Assembly: GCA_025839675.1 (NCBI GenBank)
Contig: CP104013.1
Coordinates: 3,900,001-3,932,000, forward strand
From: Candidatus Lokiarchaeum ossiferum
GTDB taxonomy: Archaea; Asgardarchaeota; Lokiarchaeia; Sigyniarchaeales; Promethearchaeaceae
DNA length: 32,000 bases
Direction of reading: 5' to 3'
The notes beneath the pieces were generated by a model. The model was not told the DNA's origin. It made no database searches and worked only from the letters and a program-made list of their open reading frames with translations. The position numbers and the translations under genes are program-made. Below, one piece after another: positions 7,149-29,632 of the stretch. The first letter of the stretch is position 1. Every line of letters begins with the position of its first letter.

Positions 7149-10100
7149 TTATTTGCGTTTATGGAAAGCAATGCTTAGTAAAGCAATCATACTTAGTATA
7201 CCCATGACTGCCGTTGGATAACCTGGAATCGAATCGAATAAGTTTTGTACATCCTCGGAAGTGTTGCTTGTAGTATCGGATGTACTAGTAGTATTAGTGG
7301 TATCAGTATCATCGATCGTATCATCTATACTTCCATCCCATGAAACATAATTATCGGGGATATCAGAAGTAAATACCTCACCCAATTCCACTCCAGTCGG
7401 AGCAGATACTAATACTTGACGTTGCCATCGAGTCCAAGTGCCATTACTGATATAACGAGTCCCCATGAAAAAGTCCTGCAGAATACCCTCTTCATTCACA
7501 GCAATTTTCATGACAGATTCGATTCCATCACCCCTATCCACGACCATTTCAAATGTAGTTCCGCTGATCGTGAGATCTTCCGTAGTTATGGTGACACCTT
7601 CTGGTAATTCCATATAATAGTTGAGAATATCTAGTAATTCAGATTCTTGTGCAGACCAATCTGTCATTCCGATATCAAAGAATTGCGTATTAGCCAAAGT
7701 CCACATATCCTCATCACGGATTGTGCTTAAAAACCACATATTATATGCAATTCCATCTTCTTCATATTGCCAAGTTTCTGAATCCCATGTAGATGAGCCA
7801 GGTTCACGAAATCTTATACTACCAAGAAAGACTACATACTCATTGTCTGTGGATCTTACAGCACCAACAGTATATTCCATACCTCCTTTTTCTGAGGGAT
7901 CTGCTCCAGTATCTTCTTCATTCCAATAGCCTGTGGGACGGTATTCAGATTGTTCCCATTCGTATACATCCAGAGATTGAACTCCCGTAATAGATGAAAT
8001 GTCTGATTCTGATGTTATACCATAAGAACTGTTGACTAAGAAGCCTACGAAGGATTCTTCTCGATCATAACCTGAGGGCTCGTCATTTGTGTTGTTAAAT
8101 TCTTCATTTTGTTTCATGTACATATCTAAATATGCTGTCATACCATAATTGTTCACATCTAATATAACGTCTTGTTGAAAAGTCCATTCACTCCATTCTT
8201 CATAACCACTTCCATCTGACCATGAATCCGACTTTTGTTCATCAAACCGTAGTCGGATTGTATTGGTGCCGAAATTCGATGCAAATGGTTCCGGTGGGCC
8301 ATCCATGTTTCCAAACATAGTGATTATTGCATTTTCTTGTGTGGTCCAATCAACTCCTGCTGGTAATAATACAGGGGGGCCATCAATCTGGCCTAATCCT
8401 CCCATCGTCATGAATGATGCAGGATTTGTGGTATCCCAAACTAAAAATGGTTGAAATCCTTCCTTATGGTATTCCCCAACGGGTTCCAAATTAGGAGTCA
8501 TTTGCATCGTTTCCATACTCCCGACTACACCCATTACGGTCCGATTTAATGCAAAGATATGGGTGACTGTAAAACGCGCTACAATAACATTGGTTTCATC
8601 AACTTTATCATCATTATCCGAACCCCAATTATCTTCATAGCGTTCATTTTGCACGATATATGTCCACCAATCCCCTTCTACCACACCAAGTTCTGGGTGA
8701 TTTTTTGTCATTGAACCAGCAACAGAACAGTTGATAGTGAGAACTAAATCTTGGTGGAAATCTTCCCATTTATCTTCAGCCGATGAATTCCACTGCTTTT
8801 GATGGAACATTCTTACGGTTCCTACAGGATGTCCTGTGTCATGCCCTAACTGTTCAACAAACAGGTAAAAATCTTGTCCTGAATTTGCCATCGTTCCGTG
8901 GATTTCAAGAATCCCTGGTTCCCTGATTAATTCATAACCTGCAGTGAGATTGATATCGTTCTCAATAATATCTGTAATGAAGGCTTCAAATTCTGGAGAT
9001 TGGAAATTAATATTTTTATGGAAATATCCTTCCCCGATCGCAGAATCAGGATGAATCGGATCGACGCGGCATAGCACTCGGTGTCGCCGCGCGCCAGTAT
9101 TTATAACCATATCGGGCTGATCGAAAGATTCTTCAAATCCAATGATAACATCTTCCCCCGTAGCTGGATTGGAATATGCAAAACTAATCCATTCACGACT
9201 CCAAATACCTTGATCTTTATCATCATCTCCATCACCGCCATCATCATCATCTCCATCATCTTCAGTAGGAGGTTCGCCGGATCGGATTTCAATATTATAA
9301 TTCACCCCAATATTCGCCCCAGTTACCTTGAAGTACAACTCATGGGATTCACTGGGATCAATATCAACTTGTAAATAACCATCTTCATCGGAATCATCTG
9401 GATTTACTTGTCCTCCACCAGCAGGATCGATTTCAGATAGTTCAAGACCACAATCTGGATCACAATGGATTACAACTTCATAATGCCATCCTTCGTTACC
9501 CCAGAAAACGAAGTAATCGTCATCAAATTTACTAAGATCGTTATAATGAGTATAACGGGCAGGAGTATCTAACCAAAACGGATTTAAATAATCGTCGTTA
9601 TCTTCGAATTTATCCTCGCGAATATCAATCCAATTATCCCAATCATTATTTATGATGACATTGATCGAGTATGTGTCGTTCCAATATCCTTCAGAACCAT
9701 TCACTTTCAAGTAATAAAAACCAGTATAAGTCGCAGTGTAATCAATAGACCAATAGTCACGAACCATGGGATATCCCTTGATAGTATTGTAAATATCTGT
9801 ATTTTGGAGAATATCCTCTGAATTATTCATGAGATATAGATCCACATCTGCTCCCGTATAATATTCCAATTCCACTTTGATCTGATCTCCGGAATTCACA
9901 TATACTTTATACCAATCATCATCATCGTGTAAATTTAGATACTTCAAGGATAAGGGAAATCCAAAACTGTTAAGATCTGAGGCTGTGTCCATAATATCAT
10001 TATCCTCCATATAATCTGGTTTACCCCACCAATTTTCTATACTTCCGTAATTAGGGTAAACTCGCGTTGTTGAACTTTGCATTTCTTCCCAATTACAATC

Positions 10101-11447
10101 ATAATATTGCCCTACATGATAAGTATCGTTGAAATTGTAACTTGCAGAAGCATTTACCATGAAATGAATCCAACGATCGTAGTCTACAGGTTCAATAAAA
10201 ATCGAATCAATGGCATATTCATATTCAGTGGGAACTATGGTCTCTCCTGGAGTTTCTTGAATTATATCTTGAGTGGTTTCATTTAACCAATATAGTTTAA
10301 CATCAGCCCCACTGTAATATTCCGTAAAGAGAGTCAAATTTTGATAGGCATCTAAACGAGTGGCAAAATGATCATCATCATTATATGTATTTAATCCCAA
10401 CCAAATGTGATTTTCTAATGCTGGCCAATAAGTCAACTCGGTTGGATTATTGAAATCATCGTTATCTTCAAGCCAATCTTCCTCCCCAACCCATTCTTCC
10501 TCATCATATTGCTCTTCTGGATTATTATACCGTTCGAATCCCGCGGATTCGTCGTAGAATTCTTCCATTCCATCATCTGGATTATCATCACCTTCATCGG
10601 TCCATCCGTCTCCTCCATCCCCATCATCATAATTATTTTCATTGCCTTGCGGATTAAATCGATCTACATAATCCCCTGGAACAAATCCAAAACTATCGGG
10701 AACATCAAAAGAATATTGATCTAATCCTTCTCCGGGAGTATTACCATCATACCCTGCGAGCTCTAAGATTAGGATCGTCCCATTATCATTTTCTTTATAA
10801 TAGGTCATTAATCCAGTTTCTTGGTTAAACCACGCATTTACCGAGAATGGTGCGTTTAGATCATCAGATTTGTTCAACGAGAAATCGACAATATGCCACC
10901 CGGCAGAAGTTGAATATGAAGATTCGAAATCGGTGGTTGCTCCGAAAGTATCTTTGATCAATTGATCTGTGTTTTCTGCAAGAGCAAGAACACCCACATC
11001 AGTAATATTATTTTCAATTAAAATTGTATGATTGAAAAGACGATATGTAAAATCATCGACTGTCCATCTTTCATTATCTCCGGTCATATTTTCGGTCATA
11101 TCGTTCCACGTTTCTCCATCCCATCCCCAATCATCAAAATTTGAGACATTTGGGAAAAAGAAATCGTAGTGTACGAAATCATTGCTGGTATCTAGGTCAG
11201 ATACTACTAGTTTTATTACCCCATCATCAGGACCATCATCCCCATCTTCCCCTTCTCGCACATTCGTAAAGTGATAATAAAGAACATCTCCTTCAACAAC
11301 ACTAATATTACTGGTCGGATTTAAATCACTCGCCTTTACAGTAGGCATTTTTATCGGTGAAGTTCCGAAAGTCATCGGAATCCCCGAAAATGTAAGGGAA
11401 ACTAGAATAATGACACTCATTGTTAGCGAAATATTTTTTCGTTTCAT
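7149..11447 (-). CDS. Very large hyper-acidic secreted/surface protein with three PPC-like domains and a PGF-CTERM-like membrane anchor
   Basis: Uninterrupted 1432-aa ORF. N-terminal signal-like MKRKNISLTMSVIILVSLTFSGIPMTFG. Extreme Asp/Glu/Trp/Tyr/Asn richness with many N-x-S/T sequons. Three E-D-N-D...DDD[WY][YF]...ADV.LY type repeats. D/G linker DDGDDDDGGDGDDDKD. Thr/Ser-rich stalk, then IPGYPTAVMGILSMIALLSIAFHKRK at the C-terminus. Confidence 0.85.
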   Translation of the reverse strand: MKRKNISLTMSVIILVSLTFSGIPMTFGTSPIKMPTVKASDLNPTSNISVVEGDVLYYHFTNVREGEDGDDGPDDGVIKLVVSDLDTSNDFVHYDFFFPNVSNFDDWGWDGETWNDMTENMTGDNERWTVDDFTYRLFNHTILIENNITDVGVLALAENTDQLIKDTFGATTDFESSYSTSAGWHIVDFSLNKSDDLNAPFSVNAWFNQETGLMTYYKENDNGTILILELAGYDGNTPGEGLDQYSFDVPDSFGFVPGDYVDRFNPQGNENNYDDGDGGDGWTDEGDDNPDDGMEEFYDESAGFERYNNPEEQYDEEEWVGEEDWLEDNDDFNNPTELTYWPALENHIWLGLNTYNDDDHFATRLDAYQNLTLFTEYYSGADVKLYWLNETTQDIIQETPGETIVPTEYEYAIDSIFIEPVDYDRWIHFMVNASASYNFNDTYHVGQYYDCNWEEMQSSTTRVYPNYGSIENWWGKPDYMEDNDIMDTASDLNSFGFPLSLKYLNLHDDDDWYKVYVNSGDQIKVELEYYTGADVDLYLMNNSEDILQNTDIYNTIKGYPMVRDYWSIDYTATYTGFYYLKVNGSEGYWNDTYSINVIINNDWDNWIDIREDKFEDNDDYLNPFWLDTPARYTHYNDLSKFDDDYFVFWGNEGWHYEVVIHCDPDCGLELSEIDPAGGGQVNPDDSDEDGYLQVDIDPSESHELYFKVTGANIGVNYNIEIRSGEPPTEDDGDDDDGGDGDDDKDQGIWSREWISFAYSNPATGEDVIIGFEESFDQPDMVINTGARRHRVLCRVDPIHPDSAIGEGYFHKNINFQSPEFEAFITDIIENDINLTAGYELIREPGILEIHGTMANSGQDFYLFVEQLGHDTGHPVGTVRMFHQKQWNSSAEDKWEDFHQDLVLTINCSVAGSMTKNHPELGVVEGDWWTYIVQNERYEDNWGSDNDDKVDETNVIVARFTVTHIFALNRTVMGVVGSMETMQMTPNLEPVGEYHKEGFQPFLVWDTTNPASFMTMGGLGQIDGPPVLLPAGVDWTTQENAIITMFGNMDGPPEPFASNFGTNTIRLRFDEQKSDSWSDGSGYEEWSEWTFQQDVILDVNNYGMTAYLDMYMKQNEEFNNTNDEPSGYDREESFVGFLVNSSYGITSESDISSITGVQSLDVYEWEQSEYRPTGYWNEEDTGADPSEKGGMEYTVGAVRSTDNEYVVFLGSIRFREPGSSTWDSETWQYEEDGIAYNMWFLSTIRDEDMWTLANTQFFDIGMTDWSAQESELLDILNYYMELPEGVTITTEDLTISGTTFEMVVDRGDGIESVMKIAVNEEGILQDFFMGTRYISNGTWTRWQRQVLVSAPTGVELGEVFTSDIPDNYVSWDGSIDDTIDDTDTTNTTSTSDTTSNTSEDVQNLFDSIPGYPTAVMGILSMIALLSIAFHKRK
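9282..10475 (-). repeat. Three tandem PPC (pre-peptidase C-terminal)-like domain repeats inside the giant CDS (about residues 325-445, 479-600, 613-722)
   Basis: Each unit opens with [LMF]EDND and carries an acidic run before aromatic residues (NDDDHFATRL / HDDDDWYKVYV / FDDDYFVFWG). A later G-ADV-LY element is present in units 1 and 2. Each unit closes with NxxY-type strands. Boundaries are approximate. Confidence 0.55.
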
Positions 11448-13705: not shown

Positions 13706-13978
13706 ATGACTAAAATGTTGGACAATGAAAATACCCTTGGAAAAATTCAAAAATACCTACATAACAAACATAAGTTTGATCGAAAGTTAGATACGCGAGA
13801 CTTGCTCGAACAACAAGATATTCTTTATAATGACTTCAAAGCTGCAATAAAATCGAATAATTCAACAAATATTCGGGAAACTTTAGGAAATTTATTAGTT
13901 GAATTGCTGAAGTATTCGAACACCAAGGAAATCGACTGGACAGATTTACTAAAAGAAAAAGTCAAACTAAATTTCTAA
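13706..13978 (+). CDS. Small helical hypothetical protein (weak MazG-like pattern without the acidic catalytic residues)
   Basis: 90-aa ORF with ATG start in a clean intergenic slot. RETLGNLLVELLKYSNTKEIDWTDLL loosely resembles the MazG helix pair, but the EExxE/D motifs are absent. Confidence 0.4.
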   Translation: MTKMLDNENTLGKIQKYLHNKHKFDRKLDTRDLLEQQDILYNDFKAAIKSNNSTNIRETLGNLLVELLKYSNTKEIDWTDLLKEKVKLNF

Positions 13979-13985
13979 AATGTGA

Positions 13986-14438
13986 TTATACAGTAGGATA
14001 ACCTGCACTATTCCAAGCAGAAATTCCACCTACCATATTATATATTTTGGAAAATTCATTGGCTACAAGAACTTCAGAAGCTGATTGACTTCGGCTCCCT
14101 GATCGACAATGAACTATTATTTCTGTATCCTTATATTCTTCGAGTTCATCCAAACGATTCTCTAACTCGTCTAACGGAATCAAGATAGAGTTATTAAGAT
14201 GTCCTGAATCATATTCACTTTGTGTACGTACATCAAGAACAATTAGATTTGGGTAATTTTTATCATCGTTAATCATCTCATATGCTTCAGAAACATTTAT
14301 ATCTTCAATACCGTCTGTTTGTCCATTATTAGGAGAAAGTTGGGGAATAAAAATAATCATAAGGATTATGCTTGCAATAACAGCAACGCTTCCGTAGATT
14401 AAGATTTTTTTTTTATTTAATTCAGAGTGTTGATCCAT
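13986..14438 (-). CDS. Membrane-anchored rhodanese-domain sulfurtransferase
   Basis: N-terminal TM (ILIYGSVAVIASIILMIIFI), then the rhodanese domain LIVLDVRTQSEYDSGHL...IIVHCRSGSRSQ (active-site loop C-R-S-G-S-R) ...GGISAW. The track start at 14477 is a TTG, so I prefer the ATG at 14438. Confidence 0.8.
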   Translation of the reverse strand: MDQHSELNKKKILIYGSVAVIASIILMIIFIPQLSPNNGQTDGIEDINVSEAYEMINDDKNYPNLIVLDVRTQSEYDSGHLNNSILIPLDELENRLDELEEYKDTEIIVHCRSGSRSQSASEVLVANEFSKIYNMVGGISAWNSAGYPTV

Positions 14439-14547
14439 GATAAACTTACATTCTAGAAACAATTTATCCCTTTTCAATTACAATTGTAAGAAGTGTATTT
14501 AATAGCAAATACGAACTAAGTTTAATCATAAGAGTGAGGGACATTTA

Positions 14548-15726: not shown

Positions 15727-16425
15727 TTAGAATTTTTTCTCATACGCTTTTTGCTTGACAATTTCCTTACGCTCCATGTGGCCACAATCGGGACACACCA
15801 ACATCCCAAATCCTATCTTATATCCATCCTGAATTCCAACTATTGGTCCATTACATACAGGACATGTGGGAGCGTTACTCGGGAACCATTGCCCTTTTGT
15901 GTTAGGAGTATTTTTTAATTTATTGATCCAATTCTGAAATCGTCCCATTGCTTGATATTGGTTTTTTTCCTTGGAACGTTCTTGGTAATTTTTTGGTCGT
16001 GACACAACCACCACCACTGATTTCATTTTTTCGGGACTGTTAATTAAAGTTAGAGTGGGTAAAATTGCATTATTCTTCATAGAGCCAAAGAACTCTAAAA
16101 GATCTGTTGGACCAACTGCTGCAATTGCACCTTTTCCTCCATAATCTGGATGGCGTTCAATTAAGATTTGAAACATTCGATCTCGGAAATCTAACGCCCA
16201 TATAAGAATCCAAAAGTCTGGATCCAAAGCTTTTTTTTCTTCCCCCGCAATATTGAGTAATCCCATTTCGGCATTGTAATGTTGGTGTTTTCGGGTTAAA
16301 CTATTAATATCTTCAAAGAACTGGCTTTCTATAAGGGGGTAAGGGTAAATCACGTCATTCATGTTATGCAAACTTATTTTAGTTGCAGACTTTTGCCAAC
16401 TAGTACGGGTGGAGAGGTAAATCAT
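15727..16425 (-). CDS. Hypothetical protein with C-terminal zinc ribbon, divergent from the E2/JAMM/E1 operon
   Basis: ORF of about 230 aa. C-terminal CPVCNG...x17...CPDCGH (two CxxC knuckles). The upstream domain is unrecognised (DPDFWILIWALDF, HPDYGGKGAIAAVGPTDLLEFFGS). Start is uncertain: TTG 16449, ATG 16425 or ATG 16362. Confidence 0.5.
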   Translation of the reverse strand: MIYLSTRTSWQKSATKISLHNMNDVIYPYPLIESQFFEDINSLTRKHQHYNAEMGLLNIAGEEKKALDPDFWILIWALDFRDRMFQILIERHPDYGGKGAIAAVGPTDLLEFFGSMKNNAILPTLTLINSPEKMKSVVVVVSRPKNYQERSKEKNQYQAMGRFQNWINKLKNTPNTKGQWFPSNAPTCPVCNGPIVGIQDGYKIGFGMLVCPDCGHMERKEIVKQKAYEKKF

Positions 16426-16600
16426 TAAATATGACAGTCGGGGATTCAAAAAAAGAATGTGTTTTTTTGAATGAATTCCTTGTACTTTTTATAGAAATTC
16501 CATCAATAAAATGCAAGGATCAAATTTATCAAGATCAATTTCATTAATGGTCATATTAAGATTCCTTTCAAAGAAATTCAATTAATTTATTCGGTTCTGG

Positions 16601-17410
16601 ATGCCCTCCATTATGAAAACACTCAATGAACAAATTCAAGATATTCTTACCCCTAATAATGCAATTGGGCTAATCAATCAAGAAAAAATATATGAGCTCT
16701 CACCGCTCATCCCTGTATCCATCTATTTTGAAATGATAGAAGATTTTGATGATGCTCTTCAGCAGAAATATTTAAGGTATCTTCAAATGGAAGGAATTGT
16801 GGTTTTTAATGGTATAATTTATGAGACTTCACGCGGTTTAAATTTCCAAGGACGATTGAAAGAAATTTTAACCGTGTATAATGCTCATTTCAAGCGGACC
16901 ATTGGGAATAAAAAAGCCCTTTTGAAACTCTTCGATTCCGTCACTCCCTTCGAAATTGCGAATTTAACTCAGGATAAAGTCATATTTGTTATGAAAAATT
17001 TTCGAAGATCAGACATGAAAGGATTAGTGGCTATCCGATATCTGCCAGAATATGAAATTTATTATGATAAAAAAATTTATCAGATGCCTCCATGCACACT
17101 TCTGGTTCATATCGATGAAAATTTAAATTATGACACGCCGGAAGTGATTGCAGAAGATGGTTCCAATTTTTATGAGCACCCGTTTGTCTATGCTGATTTT
17201 TATAAGTTTGGACAAAGAATATGTATGGGGTCGTTTAGTCATAGTACTGAACAATCGCAAATTTATAGGTTAAGTTTTGCTAATGCCATTAATTCATTGT
17301 TAAAACAAGCCGTACAAATATTAGTCTCTGGATATAATCGTGATGTAAACCCAGCAAATGGGCATCTTGGGACATCCCAATATGAGAAATTTATTAAATC
17401 CAAAGAGTAG
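16601..17410 (+). CDS. E2-like (UBC-fold-like) protein with an unassigned N-terminal extension of about 130 aa
   Basis: 269 aa. The C-terminal half reads YQMPPCTLLVHI (cf. E2 YPxxPPxVxF), HPF at His193 (cf. HPN) and a Cys in GQRICMGSF (Cys208, cf. G.ICLD), then helices (IYRLSFANAINSLLKQAVQIL). His-to-Cys spacing is 15 residues, against about 10 in canonical E2s. The gene lies first in an operon with JAMM and E1-like genes. Confidence 0.55.
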   Translation: MPSIMKTLNEQIQDILTPNNAIGLINQEKIYELSPLIPVSIYFEMIEDFDDALQQKYLRYLQMEGIVVFNGIIYETSRGLNFQGRLKEILTVYNAHFKRTIGNKKALLKLFDSVTPFEIANLTQDKVIFVMKNFRRSDMKGLVAIRYLPEYEIYYDKKIYQMPPCTLLVHIDENLNYDTPEVIAEDGSNFYEHPFVYADFYKFGQRICMGSFSHSTEQSQIYRLSFANAINSLLKQAVQILVSGYNRDVNPANGHLGTSQYEKFIKSKE

Positions 17411-17430
17411 AATAAAAGGAAAATATTGGT

Positions 17431-18165
17431 ATGAAGAATAAAGAGGTTGCTGTGGGGGATTCTTTAGAGAGTCTATTTTCACTTACTCCTTCAAATTGTA
17501 AAGAAATCGATGCAATGAATAAAAAACCACCATTTGATCAAATTATTGCTCTCACTGAAGAACAAGAAGAAAGACTGGCACTACGCCAGATTCATATATC
17601 TTCACGGGCTCTGCATAAAATGTTTTTCATGGCCAAAGAGGTCATTCGGCTTTTTAATGAACCTTTAGAAGTCTACGCTCTTGCAGTAGGGAATTCAGAA
17701 GTGATTGAAGACATATTAATTCCTCGTCAAATGTGTTCCCATACCTCAATTCATATAAATGCAAAAGATCTTCTCTCATTGATGCCAGAAATTCAAAAAC
17801 AAGATGTGAATGTATTGGGATGGACACATAGCCATGCGAATTTTAGCGTTTTTTTTTCAGGTACGGATACCCAGAATCAAAAGACAATTCTGGCTGAAAC
17901 TTCAAATTTTAGAACTCTTAATGGTTCACGGGTTAAATTCTGCTATGGGCTAACAGTAAATATTCACCAAGATGTTTTTGGGATGGTGAGTACACAATTT
18001 TCTTCGGGCAAAATCTATTCAAATCAAGCAACTCTGGAAATTCACAGTTCTCCGAATGATGGAGTTCTGTCTGACTTTGAAGAAGCCGCCCTTTCGCAAA
18101 TTCTCCGGGATCATATACATATATTGAAATCTTCATCTCAAGACTTTAAATCTGAACATTGTTAA
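17431..18165 (+). CDS. JAMM/MPN+ (JAB) metalloprotease
   Basis: 244 aa. Exact JAMM motif HSHANFSVFFSGTD (H-x-H-x7-S-x2-D, nt 17827-17868) with an upstream Glu in NEPLEVYALAVG. AAAGGA lies about 12 nt upstream of the ATG. Confidence 0.8.
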   Translation: MKNKEVAVGDSLESLFSLTPSNCKEIDAMNKKPPFDQIIALTEEQEERLALRQIHISSRALHKMFFMAKEVIRLFNEPLEVYALAVGNSEVIEDILIPRQMCSHTSIHINAKDLLSLMPEIQKQDVNVLGWTHSHANFSVFFSGTDTQNQKTILAETSNFRTLNGSRVKFCYGLTVNIHQDVFGMVSTQFSSGKIYSNQATLEIHSSPNDGVLSDFEEAALSQILRDHIHILKSSSQDFKSEHC

Positions 18166-18181
18166 TTATTAAGTGATAATT

Positions 18182-19039
18182 ATGGTAGAAATAAAATACG
18201 ATCGTCAAAGTCGCATTCCTCATTGGAATCAAACTGCTCTATCGGATGCATGTGTTGCCGTTATTGGCGCAGGTGCTTTAGGAAATCATGTATGTTTAGG
18301 TTTGATAGGGTTGGGAATTGGCACAATAAAAATCTATGATTTTGATGATATCGAAGCCCATAATTTAAACCGTCAATCTCTTTTTTGTGAAGAAGATATT
18401 GGCAAAAATAAAGCTGAAACTCTCGCATATCGCTTAGAAAAGCGGAATAGTAATTTAATGATATTAGGAATCAATGAAAAAATTGAAGAAGATACCATCG
18501 CTCCTGTCCTTCGAAAAGTTGATTTGGTCATTGATTGTGTAGATCGAATTTATGTGCGACGAATGATGAATCGTTACTGTCTCCGATCCAACATTCCATT
18601 GATCCATGGTGGAATTAGCTGGTGTGGAGGCCAAGTTGGTATATTAACCAGAACAACTCCATGCATAAATTGCATTTATCCCGAATCACTTCAAATTGAA
18701 GAATTGAAAAGTGTAACTTCTTGTATTCATAAACCAGAACCAAGTGTGGTCTATATTAGTCAAATTATCGCGGGGTTGATGGTGGAAAGTGTACGTCGTG
18801 CTTTGATGCCCTTTCCATCAGAAAAATCTCTTGGTTCTCAATTGTATAAAGTGGATTTTCGATTAGATCAACCCTTCTATTTTGAAAAAATATTTCGGAA
18901 GGTAGATTGTGAATGCACGTCAATTTTAAAACAAGTTGATCCTTCGATTCTAGAACAGGAAATGATTGAAAAGGCAAATCAGCAATCCCAAGAATCTCTT
19001 GATATTGCCAGCGCTCTTCGAGATGGGATTAGTTTCTAA
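18182..19039 (+). CDS. Compact E1-like adenylating enzyme (ThiF/MoeB/UBA family)
   Basis: KYDRQ (cf. RYSRQ), Rossmann loop VIGAGALGNH, YDFDDIEAHNLNRQ, KNKAE, DLVIDCVDR. Zinc motif CINC, then 17 residues later a lone Cys (TSCIHKPEP) at the position of the MoeB/E1 crossover-loop cysteine. A second C-x-C (DCECT). An alternative GTG start at 18173 would add 3 residues. Confidence 0.85.
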   Translation: MVEIKYDRQSRIPHWNQTALSDACVAVIGAGALGNHVCLGLIGLGIGTIKIYDFDDIEAHNLNRQSLFCEEDIGKNKAETLAYRLEKRNSNLMILGINEKIEEDTIAPVLRKVDLVIDCVDRIYVRRMMNRYCLRSNIPLIHGGISWCGGQVGILTRTTPCINCIYPESLQIEELKSVTSCIHKPEPSVVYISQIIAGLMVESVRRALMPFPSEKSLGSQLYKVDFRLDQPFYFEKIFRKVDCECTSILKQVDPSILEQEMIEKANQQSQESLDIASALRDGISF

Positions 19040-19074
19040 ATAAATGTAGATGCTCACCAAAAAATGTGAATATT

Positions 19075-19932
19075 ATGGATGAAGAATTAAAACGTGCCAT
19101 GGAAAAGGGTGAAATTTTAACCCTTGGAGAGATTACTCCAAAAGTCCCCGTCGATGTTACCTCCGAAATCTTAAAAGACTTAGATTTATCTCATCAGAAA
19201 ATTCGATATAATTTTCCTATTGGCATTGATTTTTCTAAGCATATTTCTCCCGCTATATATTTTCCAAGCATGGAGATTCTCAAAAAAATCTTAGAAATTC
19301 CCTTCCTAACTACCGAAGATCACTATAATTTGGAGTCACTTTTGTTACTGTTGAGCCAAGGAAAGATAAATCGGTATCGCACTACTTTGCTTTCAATGCA
19401 TTCTTCTGAAAAACAAATTGCTCCTCAGACTCCTGGCCTTCCTGATCAACAAAAGAGTTTAATTCATTTATTGGTTTTTCTATTATCGCTATCCTCTTCT
19501 GTTGAAGAAAAATGGCTCTCAAAGGATGGATTAGACCTTTATTTCCAAAAGAAGGAAAAAAAAAGTGCACAGAATAATCATGCACGTAGGTTAGAAATTT
19601 CAAGAAGTAAATTAACACTTCTTCAATATACCATTAATATTATCCTAAGAGAAATCTTAAAGATGCCTTTAAACCCATCTCAGATTGAAATTTGGGTCGA
19701 TATTAAGAATAAAATTCTTTCGCATTTCTATTCTAAAGCAGAAATACTAGTCTGCGATCTATTAGACTCTTCAGTTCGTCCCCATTTTACTGTTTTATCT
19801 GCTTTGGTCAAAAATATGTCTAATTCTTCCGAAACGAATCAAGTAAATGATCAAAATCCAACACATATTAAAACTGCTGTGAAATTTTTCCTTCCTGAAA
19901 TTTTTAAATGTCTAAATTATTTAATCCAATAA
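19075..19932 (+). CDS. Orphan, apparently all-helical protein; fourth gene of the E2/JAMM/E1 operon
   Basis: 285 aa from the ATG (GTG 19066 is an alternative). Same strand, about 35 nt after the E1-like stop. No catalytic or metal-binding motif recognised, few Cys, no C-terminal Gly-Gly. Confidence 0.5.
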   Translation: MDEELKRAMEKGEILTLGEITPKVPVDVTSEILKDLDLSHQKIRYNFPIGIDFSKHISPAIYFPSMEILKKILEIPFLTTEDHYNLESLLLLLSQGKINRYRTTLLSMHSSEKQIAPQTPGLPDQQKSLIHLLVFLLSLSSSVEEKWLSKDGLDLYFQKKEKKSAQNNHARRLEISRSKLTLLQYTINIILREILKMPLNPSQIEIWVDIKNKILSHFYSKAEILVCDLLDSSVRPHFTVLSALVKNMSNSSETNQVNDQNPTHIKTAVKFFLPEIFKCLNYLIQ

Positions 19933-19940
19933 ATCCACCC

Positions 19941-20894
19941 TTATTCTTCTCTATTTTTTGAAGAAGTGAGTTTTTTTGTAATATTCTTGAATGGGTCTGC
20001 TTCATTATTTTGAACCTCACTTTTAAAGGGTGTATTTTCGGGTTCTTGGGAGGAAGAGGGTTGTATTTTAGTCTTCTCATCCCTTATCCAGAAGGTTTTA
20101 ATAGAATTATCATCTGGATATTGAACTGCTTGGGGGTTAGAAGGCATAATTGTTTTACTTTCGGATGATGCAGGTGTAAGATTTTTAGGGCGAAATGTTT
20201 TTTCAAAAGGAGATGCTATATCATTGGGTTTGAAGAGTGTTGCGGAATCCGGAGAAGGATGAATTGTCGCTGTTGTGCGTGGTTTAGCTTGATCAAAGGG
20301 ATTTTCTTCCGATGAGAGGGATGTAAATTCTGATTTTGCAAAAGGATTAATGGGTACATCAAATTGGGGTTTGATCGTTTTATTGCTTGCTAGGGGAGAA
20401 AATGGTGTGTCAGTGCTGGAAAACTCTTTGGGCATGATTGTTTGGCTTGTATCTTCCTTCTTTTTTGGAAGTGCTGCTGCAAGATCCGCAATTTTCTTTA
20501 GTGACTCCCGAATTTGGGAAGAAACCCACGATTTTATATAGTGGCGATCTGGATGGTCTGAAATTGCTTTGGTTGTGGCAATTATTTCTTCATACGCGTC
20601 TTCAATTTTCCCCCGAGAAATCAAATTCCAGACATCTTCATCCCGATTTAAAAATTGTATATTAATATTACATTCTCTCAACAGTTCCACTCGTTGGTTA
20701 TCAAATTCCATCAAAACTGGATGTTGCTTGATTTTTGTGTAGAGTTTGATGAGTTCTACTTTAGTTTTATCAAATTCACTTTTTGTATTGATATATGAGA
20801 TACGACTGGCCAGACGATTTAGTGCAGAATGCATTTCATGGCCACTGACTATTGCTTTTTCTTTTCTCTTCTTTGACAAAACTAGCACCAACAT
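19941..20894 (-). CDS. Hypothetical protein: N-terminal helical domain plus long disordered Ser/Pro/Thr/Lys tail with six xPF motifs
   Basis: 317-aa ORF with ATG start, convergent with the operon (8-nt gap between stops). The tail contains DTPF, INPF, ENPF, ASPF, NTPF and ADPF. Confidence 0.55.
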   Translation of the reverse strand: MLVLVLSKKRKEKAIVSGHEMHSALNRLASRISYINTKSEFDKTKVELIKLYTKIKQHPVLMEFDNQRVELLRECNINIQFLNRDEDVWNLISRGKIEDAYEEIIATTKAISDHPDRHYIKSWVSSQIRESLKKIADLAAALPKKKEDTSQTIMPKEFSSTDTPFSPLASNKTIKPQFDVPINPFAKSEFTSLSSEENPFDQAKPRTTATIHPSPDSATLFKPNDIASPFEKTFRPKNLTPASSESKTIMPSNPQAVQYPDDNSIKTFWIRDEKTKIQPSSSQEPENTPFKSEVQNNEADPFKNITKKLTSSKNREE

Positions 20895-24746: not shown

Positions 24747-25892
24747 ATGAGCGACGATATGGACTGGTTAGCAGCTAAACCGTTAGTGGTTGATAACGGT
24801 ACTGGTATTTCAAAAAATGGATTTGCAGGAGAAGATCAGCCTCGATCCGTATTTCCAACTTTAATTGGATATCCAAAATACACATCTATCATGACAGATG
24901 TAGAACACTACACTCGGGAATATTATATTGGGGAAGAAGCACTCCAACTCAAAGGAGTCCTCAAACTTATGTTTCCAGTAGAACACGGAGTCATCGAAGA
25001 CTGGATGGCTATGGAAAAAATCTGGCATTACACTTTCTATACAGACTTACGAGTCGATCCAAGCGAACATCCGGTTTTACTTACTGAGGCACCTCTTAAC
25101 CCTCGTCCAAATCGGGAAAAGATGGCCGAAATTATGTTCGAAACCTTCAATGTGCCCGCACTGTATGTGGCTATGCAAGCAGTATTGTCTTTGTATGCTT
25201 CTGGTCGAACTACAGGGTGTGTTATTGATATTGGGGATGGGGTATCGCACGTTGTCCCAATTTATGAAGGATTTGCACTTTCCCATGCAATCTCTCGGTT
25301 AGATTTAGCCGGGCGAGATATTACCACTTACTTACAAAGATTGCTTCGACAAAAAGGATTCACGTTCACAACATCCGCAGAAAAACAAATTGTCCGAGAT
25401 ATCAAGGAAAAACTCTGTTATGTAGCTTTAGATCCTGAAAAAGAAATTATGTTATCCAAGAAAGTAGCAGGGATGGAAAAAGTGTACATGATGCCTGATG
25501 GGGAAACCATTACCGTATCTGTGGAACGTTTCTTAGCGCCAGAATGTTTCTTCAACCCAAGTGTTATTGGAAAAGAGTTGGAACCTTTGGATGATGTGAT
25601 TTGCACCGCAATTAAAGCCTGTGATGTAGATTTACGACGAGATTTGTATGGTAACATTGTGTTATCCGGGGGATCTACGATGTATCCTGGCTTGAAAGAA
25701 CGGTTAACCAAAGAAATCAAAGAGCAAATCCCCGAAAGTGTGGATGTCAAGATCATTGCCCCCCCAGAACGGATGTATTCCGTATGGATTGGTGGCTCTA
25801 TCTTGTCTTCGTTGAAGACATTCCAACGTATGTGGGTCACTCGACGCGAATACAAGGAAATGGGTCCACAAGTTATCCACCGCTGCTTCTAA
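24747..25892 (+). CDS. Actin (Asgard lokiactin-type, eukaryote-like conventional actin homolog)
   Basis: 381 aa. Long blocks are identical or near-identical to eukaryotic actin as I remember it: [135 protein letters not shown], and the terminal IHRCF (cf. VHRKCF). Confidence 0.95.
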
Positions 25893-28812: not shown

Positions 28813-29496
28813 CTATTCTAAAATTGAATATCCACACAATTTCAATTTTTCTTTTAGTTTTGCTTCCCAATTATCATCGAATGGGCAATAGAGACTTTGT
28901 TGCAAATCTGACGGAATATCAACGGACTCAGTATCATGATAAAGTACCATGACTTTTTCTAATGTCAATTTACCAGCCAGATAACCAAGATCAAAAAATA
29001 AATTCTTTCCCAATGTAGATCCACTATTTAGATTAGGGGATATAACGAAAATAATGAAACCTATATCATTTTTCGACTTCAATCTATCAATTACTGATTT
29101 TCGGGGAGTTTCATTGACATAAAAATATTTTGGAATAAATCGTAACTGTTTTACTGCTTTTTCAACCAATTCTTGCATTTCACTGGCTTCTTCATGCATG
29201 ATATAAATTCTTTGTTTTGACTCCAGCTCACTAATGAAGTTGCGGAGAAAATCGATTAAGTTGGGCCTATTAGTTTGAAGCCAATACATTTCTTTCATAT
29301 ACTTCGCACTGGGGGAATCCTCATGCGTAAATTTTTGACGATTCGTTATGGAAAAGGGTTTATATTGCTCTCCAAAAATCTCTAAAACCAAATTATTTGC
29401 TTTTTCAATTAATTCGGTGAATTGTTCAATTTTTGACCTTTGAATCTCATTCATAAGGGTTCGCAGTCGTGAAATGATTTTTTCTTGATCCTGCAT
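28813..29496 (-). CDS. TIR-like domain protein (COG4271 / PF10137 type) with N-terminal helical region
   Basis: 227 aa from ATG 29496 (the track start at 29589 is a TTG). The C-terminal half matches the TIR-like consensus from memory: RIYIMHEEA (cf. KVFIVHG), IGFIIFVISPN, KNLFFDLGYLAGKLTLEKVMVLY (cf. NVIFELGLFMGRLGRERV), IPSDLQQSLYCPFD (cf. LPSDLAGI.Y..F). Confidence 0.6.
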   Translation of the reverse strand: MQDQEKIISRLRTLMNEIQRSKIEQFTELIEKANNLVLEIFGEQYKPFSITNRQKFTHEDSPSAKYMKEMYWLQTNRPNLIDFLRNFISELESKQRIYIMHEEASEMQELVEKAVKQLRFIPKYFYVNETPRKSVIDRLKSKNDIGFIIFVISPNLNSGSTLGKNLFFDLGYLAGKLTLEKVMVLYHDTESVDIPSDLQQSLYCPFDDNWEAKLKEKLKLCGYSILE

Positions 29497-29632
29497 AGAT
29501 AATATATATATCAATAACTCGAATTTAAATGAAATAGCTGCGAAATTTATTGGGAAACCATTTATACATATTTGTTTCGTAAATACCAAAATTTTCTATA
29601 AGGAAAAAAGCCTAGAAATAGTAGAGAGGATC

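Follow-up and report, generated by a model that had tools for sequence, protein, structure and literature searches.

A predicted E1/E2/JAMM-type conjugation operon with a divergent E2-like protein and a dedicated partner is conserved in Lokiarchaeia

The chromosome of Candidatus Lokiarchaeum ossiferum carries, within a 32,000-nucleotide (nt) stretch of contig CP104013.1 (positions 3,900,001 to 3,932,000 of assembly GCA_025839675.1; hereafter the window, numbered from its first letter), four closely spaced plus-strand genes at 16601-19932. They encode an E2-like protein (open reading frame 1, ORF1), a JAB/JAMM protease (ORF2), a ThiF-type E1 (ORF3) and a partner protein with a PIGIDF motif (ORF4). 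About 11 Lokiarchaeial genomes keep the order ORF1-JAB-E1-ORF4, with protein identities of 20-68%, and the catalytic motifs of the enzymes are intact. On balance, these genes probably form a chromosomally fixed, lineage-wide Lokiarchaeial conjugation module of E1/E2/JAB type, in which a divergent E2 family and the dedicated ORF4 partner would act with a modifier encoded in trans.

Ideas on how eukaryotic ubiquitin signalling arose take Asgard archaea as their point of reference, and surveys of ubiquitin systems in this group rely on InterPro signatures for UBC, ThiF and JAMM domains (PMC9192718). Because no Pfam, NCBIfam or PADLOC model matches either ORF1 or ORF4, such surveys are expected to miss both proteins, and the operon adds an E1/E2/JAMM cascade that they would overlook. 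Full-text searches of the literature outside subscription-only sources returned no account of the operon, nor of either the ORF1 or the ORF4 family. Newly defined here are an E2-like family with an extra N-terminal domain, an E2-associated family that is a candidate non-RING E3 or adaptor, and, in related operons, two families of small proteins with Gly-Gly (GG) tails that lack sequence similarity to known ubiquitin-like proteins (Ubls). The general logic of E1/E2/JAB conjugation is already familiar, and the puzzle is which protein the Lokiarchaeial enzymes conjugate. Since the operon is present in two cultured organisms, L. ossiferum and Promethearchaeum syntrophicum MK-D1, it is experimentally tractable.

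A conserved four-gene operon

An initial annotation, made from the sequence of the window alone, had reported four same-strand ORFs separated by about 20, 16 and 35 nt and had proposed a search for synteny of the set in related genomes. The spacing was reproduced once gene starts were placed by alignment to homologs, and the search recovered the four-gene set in the genomes counted above, which include those of P. syntrophicum MK-D1 and Ca. Harpocratesius repetitus. Across the Lokiarchaeial loci, the gene order reads FGGY kinase (minus strand), a small helical ORF, GDPD, a 240-amino-acid (aa) zinc-ribbon protein (minus), ORF1-JAB-E1-ORF4 (plus) and a 300-aa protein (minus); identities to the window proteins are given in Table 1. 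The operon occurs in every sampled Lokiarchaeial genus, the two cultured organisms included, and in Lokiarchaeum, Promethearchaeum and Harpocratesius it holds a fixed position beside the housekeeping genes for the FGGY kinase and GDPD. Its GC content (0.33-0.36) is the same as that of the remaining window.

ORF1 is very probably a divergent E2

ORF1 is in all likelihood a divergent UBC-like E2. Predicted topology, an enrichment of E2 enzymes among structural matches, the register of the active site, a near-invariant Cys208 and gene context agree on this assignment, the individual lines each being weak and mutually consistent. Conventional sequence comparison is silent: searches of Pfam, PADLOC, NCBIfam and the PDB sequences gave no match for ORF1 or ORF4, whether the query was a single sequence or a profile. 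ORF1 does not belong to the canonical UBC family PF00179, as it has no Pfam match at E≤1 and ten of its distant relatives have none at E≤0.1, and a profile search of the PDB with ORF1 found no E2.

A word-indexed search for the ORF1 family returned 31 members, all from Lokiarchaeia/Promethearchaeota and at least 48% identical, and in the alignment of 30 Lokiarchaeial homologs H193, P194, F195 and C208 are invariant. An exhaustive profile search enlarged the family to 46 representatives, among them distant relatives that span 190-630 aa and have no Pfam domain; a homolog search with the diverse alignment, which passed through a word prefilter, gave almost only the Lokiarchaeial set. The wider family shares the motif Y-x-H-P-[FY]-[VL] ... 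[IM]-C-x-G ... Q-I-L-x-x-G-Y ... P-A-x-G-x-L, and the position of Cys208 is Cys in at least 90% of a 38-sequence alignment of diverse relatives. The UBC-like arrangement with a candidate catalytic Cys208 that had been noted in the initial annotation is thereby retained. The spacing from His to Cys is 10 in short-loop relatives (YMHPFVFRDGKMCLG), equal to that in HPNINSNGSICL, and 15 in the window ORF1; the family has the conserved Cys about 10 residues downstream of HPx that is used to recognize the UBC/E2 superfamily. When the family profile was compared with four canonical E2s by hhalign (P=0.02; E2 reference sequences entered by hand), HPF aligned to HPN, the Cys residues to one another, and QILxSGYxxxxNPA to LLSIxxLLxxPNP.

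The AlphaFold2 model of ORF1 (mean pLDDT 83.6) begins with an N-terminal domain of a beta-hairpin, two helices and a second beta-hairpin (aa ~20-78). One long and two short helices lead from it into a five-stranded meander; the HPF loop and Cys208 come next, and four helices complete the series. In the model, the order of these elements is that of the UBC fold. A Foldseek search of the PDB with the model yielded nothing significant, yet E2 enzymes make up nine of the top 25 matches: UbcH5c, Rad6 (four entries), Cdc34, UBE2H, a Toxoplasma E2 and 1qcq. These nine are individually weak (E 0.08-0.9, target-normalised TM-scores 0.33-0.41) and cover 134-148 columns, almost full-length. Against BFVD, the model matched a phage protein named "Type II CBASS E2 domain" (E 0.014). 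The whole model was also matched by three viral proteins without names (A0A516M3P8, A0A1B0WLX5 and A0A516ML27; 420-542 aa), with E values of 9e-4 to 3e-3 and probabilities of 0.98-1.0. Judging from these model-based matches, viral homologs of the ORF1 family may exist; pattern scans of IMG/VR viral contigs found no member of the family.

The N-terminal domain of ORF1 was considered as a fused modifier, an idea suggested by G79 and G84, which are invariant at the domain boundary and could mark a cleavage site. It was ruled out on two grounds. Residues 1-84 modelled alone (pLDDT 85.6) matched no ubiquitin, ThiS or MoaD beta-grasp in a Foldseek search of the PDB (best E 0.5), and the domain is present as well in relatives that encode a Ubl-like protein separately. 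The domain is specific to the family and, according to the model, is not a beta-grasp.

An intact JAMM protease and a ThiF-type E1

ORF2 matches Pfam Prok-JAB (PF14464; 9.4e-7, 29.2 bits against a cut-off of 25). Glu80 (in EVYAL) and HSHANFSVFFSGTD make up a perfect E..HxHx7SxxD pattern, which places the protein in the JAMM/MPN+ group, and the metal-binding and catalytic residues are invariant across 11 orthologs. ORF2 is predicted to be an active protease, as the initial annotation had suggested from the same motif and upstream Glu, and would probably process a modifier precursor, strip conjugates or do both.

ORF3 is a member of the ThiF/MoeB/E1 superfamily (Pfam ThiF, PF00899; 4.7e-49, 167 bits). 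The signature described earlier was located in full; the protein has GAGALGNH (ATP-binding), KYDRQ (with its Arg), DFDDIEAHNLNRQ and DCVD, a zinc site with CINC at aa 164-167 and CEC at 246-248 as its second half, and Cys184 (TSC) at the crossover-loop position. All catalytic residues of the JAB and E1 proteins are invariant over orthologs that are just 40-68% identical. Two related loci, among the homologous loci that were recovered in the searches and are labelled here with L and a number (L017 and L018 treated together), encode E1s with two ThiF domains per chain, the N-terminal degenerate and the C-terminal active (L014, 6175-7773; L018, 12253-13653). These recall the pseudo-dimeric inactive and active adenylation domains of eukaryotic E1s.

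The E1 might instead activate a sulfur carrier of MoaD/ThiS type for cofactor synthesis or tRNA thiolation, in which case ORF1 and ORF4 would have nothing to do with conjugation. The best PDB sequence matches of the protein are indeed E. coli ThiF and MoeB, and 2 kb upstream of the operon there is a gene for a rhodanese-domain protein. But the E1 fell short of each equivalog cut-off in NCBIfam by a factor of about two or more (ThiF 145/275, MoeB 113/266-449, UbaA 102/450), it scores closer to E1s of Ubl-E2-JAB operons (180 bits against the L017 E1 and 139 against the L014 E1) than to E. coli ThiF (95), and it is always flanked by JAB and conserved-Cys E2-like genes. No MoaD, ThiS, MoaE, ThiG or other carrier or cofactor gene was found in the window or in the 11 syntenic loci, and the rhodanese gene is not syntenic in the other genomes. 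The initial annotation had named grouping of the E1 with MoeB/ThiF, together with sulfur-carrier genes, as the pattern that would speak against conjugation; these scores and neighbourhoods show a different one, and a role in sulfur transfer is very improbable.

ORF4 recurs beside the E2-like gene

The initial annotation had called ORF4 an orphan. Near the N-terminus, Lokiarchaeial ORF4 proteins have DEELKKALEKGEILxVG in common and, about 30 residues on, YNxPIGIDFxK. The body that follows is poorly conserved and without detectable homology to anything; the family evolves fast (19-57% identity). The gene after E1 in L013 has the ORF4 motif (...DDELARILGSGRIIEIG ... VGVDPD). In L021 (NVPIGIDFEK) and L024 (NSPIGVDFDK), an ORF4-like gene directly follows the E2-like gene (E 4e-5 and 2e-5 with the ORF4 hidden Markov model), and no JAB or E1 gene adjoins the pair. 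In L014 and L017/L018, a gene of 247-259 aa stands after E1 in the position of ORF4, its motif resemblance being faint. Because an ORF4-like gene follows the E2-like gene even where JAB and E1 are not adjacent, the E2-like protein and the PIGIDF protein form a constant pair, and ORF4 is a signature component of these systems, not an orphan. On the model of UFL1, which binds UFC1 through its N-terminal helix (PMC10702826), ORF4 is predicted to be an E2-binding, E3-like adaptor, a specificity factor or a preferred substrate.

Divergent versions of the locus were also recovered. L013 (4815-11018) has two tandem E2-like paralogs with HMF for HPF and a degenerate JAB-like paralog without HxH, followed by an active 446-aa JAB, an E1 and the ORF4-like gene. 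In L021 (3712-8546; GC just 22%), L024 (3520-8433) and L026 (79-4788), a domain-less protein of about 1050-1100 aa precedes the E2-like and ORF4-like genes, and JAB and E1 are not adjacent.

The modifier in related operons and in Lokiarchaeia

In the window, no ORF of at least 40 aa ends in GG or has a credible GG in its last 15 residues, nor is any ORF similar to the Ubl-like genes found in related operons. Pfam ubiquitin and RING domains are absent among the operon proteins and their neighbours, and the tails of ORF1, JAB, E1 and ORF4 are variable, with no conserved C-terminal Gly. Two neighbouring genes were examined as modifiers and rejected. The divergent zinc-ribbon protein at 15727-16449 was considered as a Ubl-zinc-ribbon precursor on account of an internal YGGKG; the GG is not conserved, and profiles give only a zinc ribbon. 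The conserved small upstream ORF at 13706-13978 has no C-terminal Gly (its homologs end in ...LNF, ...NLN or ...INL) and no similarity to the Ubl-like proteins of relatives.

More distant contexts differ. In four of them, a small gene with a GG tail, bare or extended by 1-5 residues, stands shortly upstream of the E2-like gene. In L014, a 181-aa protein ending ...AEEGG-KGF is followed by genes for an E2-like protein (493 aa), JAB (558 aa), the two-domain ThiF E1 (532 aa), a 247-aa protein and a Ser/Thr kinase; in L017/L018, a 134-aa protein ending ...QDQEGG-LKLYM precedes an E2-like protein (467 aa), JAB (950 aa), E1 (466 aa), a 259-aa protein and an AAA+ ATPase. The 108-aa protein of L015 (...NLQRRHTGG-A) is followed by the E2-like gene, and the 150-aa protein of L023, which stops directly after ...NLQRQQTGG, by a dUTPase-like gene, the E2-like gene and JAB. 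These proteins fall into two families, one of the L014 and L018 proteins (z=4.6) and one of the homologous L015 and L023 proteins (z=46), and their size, position and GG (plus extension) terminus suggest that they are Ubls. The E2-like gene is followed by JAB in L014, L016, L017/L018, L019 and L023, with E1 next in L014 and L017/L018. A further observation comes from L019 (5579-6682; P0060), where the E2-like protein itself ends ...NRGPGG-MRF, a tail like those of modifier precursors, and is followed by the JAB gene.

Because the upstream GG-tailed gene is found in distant relatives, the ancestral layout is best read as Ubl-E2-JAB-E1-partner, in Bil order, of which the Lokiarchaeia would keep the enzymes without a modifier gene in cis; for the same reason, the Lokiarchaeial system probably draws on a modifier whose gene lies elsewhere in the genome. 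The earlier claim that no modifier is recognizable accordingly stands for the Lokiarchaeial operon and the window, in which no ubiquitin, Ubl or RING gene was seen, and fails for the wider family: the lack of a modifier gene is a matter of lineage-specific gene location, not a property of the system.

If the modifier is encoded elsewhere, it could be the canonical Asgard ubiquitin, or a UFM1-like protein, of separate Ub/ESCRT regions, and the operon would then be machinery that feeds the ubiquitin-ESCRT pathway. This explanation, which we consider unlikely, accords with the lack of a modifier in the operon, with the encoding of ubiquitin apart from other pathway genes in Lokiarchaeia (PMC9192718), with a ubiquitin gene in MK-D1 (bioRxiv 10.1101/2025.11.01.685982) and with Ufm1 homologues in nine Asgard clades (PMC12962969). 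Yet the Lokiarchaeial ubiquitin region is reported to have its own InterPro-detectable E1, UBC-type E2 and JAMM (PMC9192718), whereas ORF1 is invisible to such models. In the relatives, moreover, the system has a GG-tailed protein of its own upstream, and as the sequence of that protein resembles neither ubiquitin nor UFM1, a dedicated modifier family is suggested.

Another possibility is that the Lokiarchaeial version has dispensed with a beta-grasp modifier, so that E1 and E2 activate and transfer the C-terminus of a protein or peptide that is not a Ubl, or that the E2-like protein and ORF4 have been re-purposed. Cap2 activates the C-terminus of the CD-NTase in CBASS, and MccB activates MccA in microcin C systems, which provides precedent; a modifier gene is absent at all Lokiarchaeial loci while the catalytic residues remain constrained, and P0060 ends ...GPGG|MRF. 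Against this, the operon proteins lack a conserved Gly at the C-terminus, a peptide-clamp/RRE domain is missing from the E1, and the relatives pair the system with GG-tailed small proteins; the chance that the Lokiarchaeial enzymes work in this way seems slim. A dedicated modifier encoded in trans is the reading preferred here.

Genomic context and the question of defence

Prokaryotic operons of this composition can be conflict systems, and the initial annotation had considered a defence module. As in Bil (BilABCD) or type II CBASS, a Ubl or effector would then be conjugated to viral or host proteins on infection. The order E2-JAB-E1 is that of BilB-C-D, with a Ubl first in relatives, like BilA, and the fast evolution of ORF4 would suit an antiviral role. 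So would the matches of the E1 to the CBASS E1-E2 models of PADLOC (1e-20, a generic ThiF level), the surroundings of L023 (a mobile-element-like context with dUTPase and DNA methylase) and of L017/L018 (kinases and AAA+ ATPases), the unnamed viral matches in BFVD at E~1e-3, and a TIR-domain protein 9 kb from the operon in the window. But the locus has a fixed chromosomal place with the conserved FGGY kinase and GDPD genes in at least three genera, unlike patchy defence islands; its GC content is ordinary, and its relatives are missing from the IMG/VR viral contigs. PADLOC gave no match for ORF1 or ORF4 and only 0.013 for the JAB, and the operon has no effector or sensor gene. An antiviral function is consequently a doubtful explanation, and a vertically inherited cellular system fits the synteny, the conservation pattern, the composition and the viral-contig searches better than a mobile defence island.

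Proposed mechanism and significance

A vertically inherited conjugation module would work as follows. A small Gly-terminated modifier, encoded elsewhere in the Lokiarchaeial genome, would have the C-terminal extension of its precursor trimmed by the JAMM protease. The ThiF-type E1, presumably a homodimer, would adenylate the C-terminal Gly of the modifier and take it up as a thioester on Cys184, from which it would be handed to Cys208 of the E2-like ORF1. ORF4 would dock on the E2 via its N-terminal helix and PIGIDF motif, serving as an adaptor, a specificity factor or a privileged target, and the JAMM protease would also reverse conjugation.

Several observations weigh against this scheme. 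ORF1 has HPF instead of HPN, and its His-to-Cys loop in Lokiarchaeia is five residues longer; the role given to ORF4 rests on gene context, with no homology to any known E3. In the 11 genomes, no Lokiarchaeial modifier was found within about 8 kb of the operon (no ORF with GG in its last 10 residues), and the GG-tailed proteins of relatives lack sequence similarity to Ub, UFM1, NEDD8, Urm1, ThiS and MoaD.

A broader and more tentative proposal is that the operon represents a third independent archaeal pathway of Ubl type, beside eukaryote-like ubiquitin and sampylation, with its own E2, a PIGIDF non-RING E3 or adaptor and a GG modifier that is an orphan in sequence. In Lokiarchaeia, either the modifier gene would have become uncoupled from the operon, or the enzymes would now charge a substrate without a beta-grasp. 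If this is true, cultured Asgard archaea, the closest relatives of eukaryotes, possess a new core, vertically inherited post-translational signalling pathway.

Features and neighbouring genes

Table 1. Features of the operon and its flanks, with identity of proteins from syntenic loci to the window protein
Feature	Window position	Strand	Length or residues	Identity	Remarks
ORF1 (NEF87_003303), E2-like	16601-17410	+	269 aa	50-56%	likely true start 16613 by homolog alignment
ORF1 HPF loop	17177-17185	+	aa 193-195		motif location
ORF1 Cys208 (in RICMG)	17222-17224	+	aa 208		candidate catalytic Cys; motif location
ORF2, JAB/JAMM	17431-18165	+	244 aa	40-44%	
JAMM motif HSHANFSVFFSGTD	17827-17868	+	aa 133-146		H133-x-H135-x7-S143-xx-D146
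ORF3, ThiF-type E1	18173-19039	+	288 aa	62-68%	likely start 18182 by homolog alignment
ORF4 (NEF87_003306)	19066-19932	+	288 aa	27-39%	likely start 19075 by homolog alignment; identity from local matches, mostly first 100-180 residues
ORF4 conserved helix/strand DEELKRAMEKGEILTLG		+	aa 5-21		N-terminal
ORF4 PIGIDFSK motif	19216-19239	+	aa 51-58		family motif PIG[IV]DF
AT-rich intergenic region	16450-16600		151 nt		between operon and divergent upstream gene
Zinc-ribbon neighbour, divergent	15727-16449	-	240 aa	45-68%	C-terminal CxxC...CxxC
Convergent neighbour	19941-20894	-	317 aa		helical N-terminal part and low-complexity tail
FGGY kinase				73-79%	

The AT-rich region upstream of ORF1 is presumed to be a promoter region common to the operon and the divergent zinc-ribbon gene. 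The latter encodes a conserved protein without assigned function that has the invariant motifs TSWQ, WILIWA.DF and GKG; it adjoins the operon in all Lokiarchaeial loci of this type and is not found in the distant versions, and whether it belongs to the conjugation system is uncertain. The convergent neighbour on the other side, with detectable conservation in four Lokiarchaeial loci (about 32% identity), probably lies outside the system. Its tail of about 170 residues has repeated NPF/DPF/SPF/TPF motifs, recalling EH-domain-binding motifs.

Further out in the window, a lokiactin gene (24747-25892, plus strand; 381 aa, Pfam Actin 7.7e-131) lies about 5 kb downstream of the operon. The TIR-domain protein (28813-29589, minus strand; 258 aa) carries a CAP12/Pycsar-type TIR effector domain (2e-9) and is a possible link to defence. 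A 1432-aa ORF (7149-11447, minus strand) has zero Pfam matches and is unrelated to the ~1100-aa proteins of L021, L024 and L026. The rhodanese-domain gene (13986-14477, minus strand) encodes an N-terminal hydrophobic segment; as the gene is not conserved in syntenic loci, its proximity to an operon with a ThiF-type E1 looks coincidental.

Comparison with known systems

Bil was compared by gene order and composition, the libraries used having no Bil-specific profiles; PADLOC v2.0.0 gave generic CBASS E1-E2 and JAB matches. As the initial annotation had remarked, the order E2-JAB-E1 is Bil-like: both systems have separate genes for the E2, the JAMM protease and a short ThiF-type E1 in the same order, and the related archaeal operons begin, as Bil does, with a Ubl, which has an extension after GG that the JAB could remove. 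The Lokiarchaeial operon differs from Bil in having no Ubl gene and hence no BilA equivalent, in an E2-like protein of another, unannotated family with an extra N-terminal domain and HPF, and in the obligatory extra partner ORF4. Its locus is fixed and vertically inherited in an archaeal class, in contrast to patchy defence islands.

With the Ub/E1/E2/RING/Rpn11 operon of Caldiarchaeum and Asgard archaea, the operon shares an archaeal E1, E2 and JAMM set and an E2 of HPx...Cys type (PMC5654768, PMC6043591, PMC9192718). In the Caldiarchaeum-type system, the JAMM protease Rpn11 processes the ubiquitin precursor (PMC5654768, PMC6043591, PMC9192718). Unlike that operon, the Lokiarchaeial one has no ubiquitin and no RING E3, its E2 is unseen by UBC models, and ORF4, which is unrelated to RING, stands where an E3 might be expected.

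Type II CBASS Cap2/Cap3 likewise combines E1, E2 and JAB chemistry with the lack of a beta-grasp modifier gene in the operon; the match of the Lokiarchaeial E1 to Cap2 profiles reaches 1e-20, and the ORF1 model has a weak match (E 0.014) to the CBASS E2 domain protein. In Lokiarchaeia, however, E1 and E2 are separate proteins, the window encodes no CD-NTase or effector domain, no operon protein is conserved as Gly-terminated, and the genomic context is another.

Sampylation (SAMP/UbaA/HvJAMM1) is another archaeal system that has a ThiF-type E1 of a single domain beside a JAMM protease, and its modifier genes lie at other places in the genome. It has no E2, whereas the E2-like protein and its partner are integral here, and the Lokiarchaeial E1 reaches 102 bits against the 450-bit UbaA cut-off. 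The UFM1 system (UBA5, UFC1, UFL1) resembles the operon in its short E1 with a C-terminal tail and no separate Cys domain, in an E2 with a non-canonical replacement of HPN and, as an analogy for ORF4, in the non-RING helical UFL1, which binds the E2 by its N-terminal helix. In sequence, neither ORF1 nor ORF4 is related to UFC1 or UFL1, the protease is a JAMM rather than the Cys protease UFSP, and the Lokiarchaeial E1 is closer to ThiF/MoeB than to UBA5 (1e-8).

The Lokiarchaeial operon would thus work like the E1/E2/JAB cascades of Bil, of Caldiarchaeum/Asgard ubiquitin and, in part, of type II CBASS, and by the features tested it is a member of none of them. The initial annotation had left modifier, target and biological role undefined; in kind, the system is part of a wider, as yet unnamed archaeal family with the composition Ubl-E2-JAB-E1-partner.

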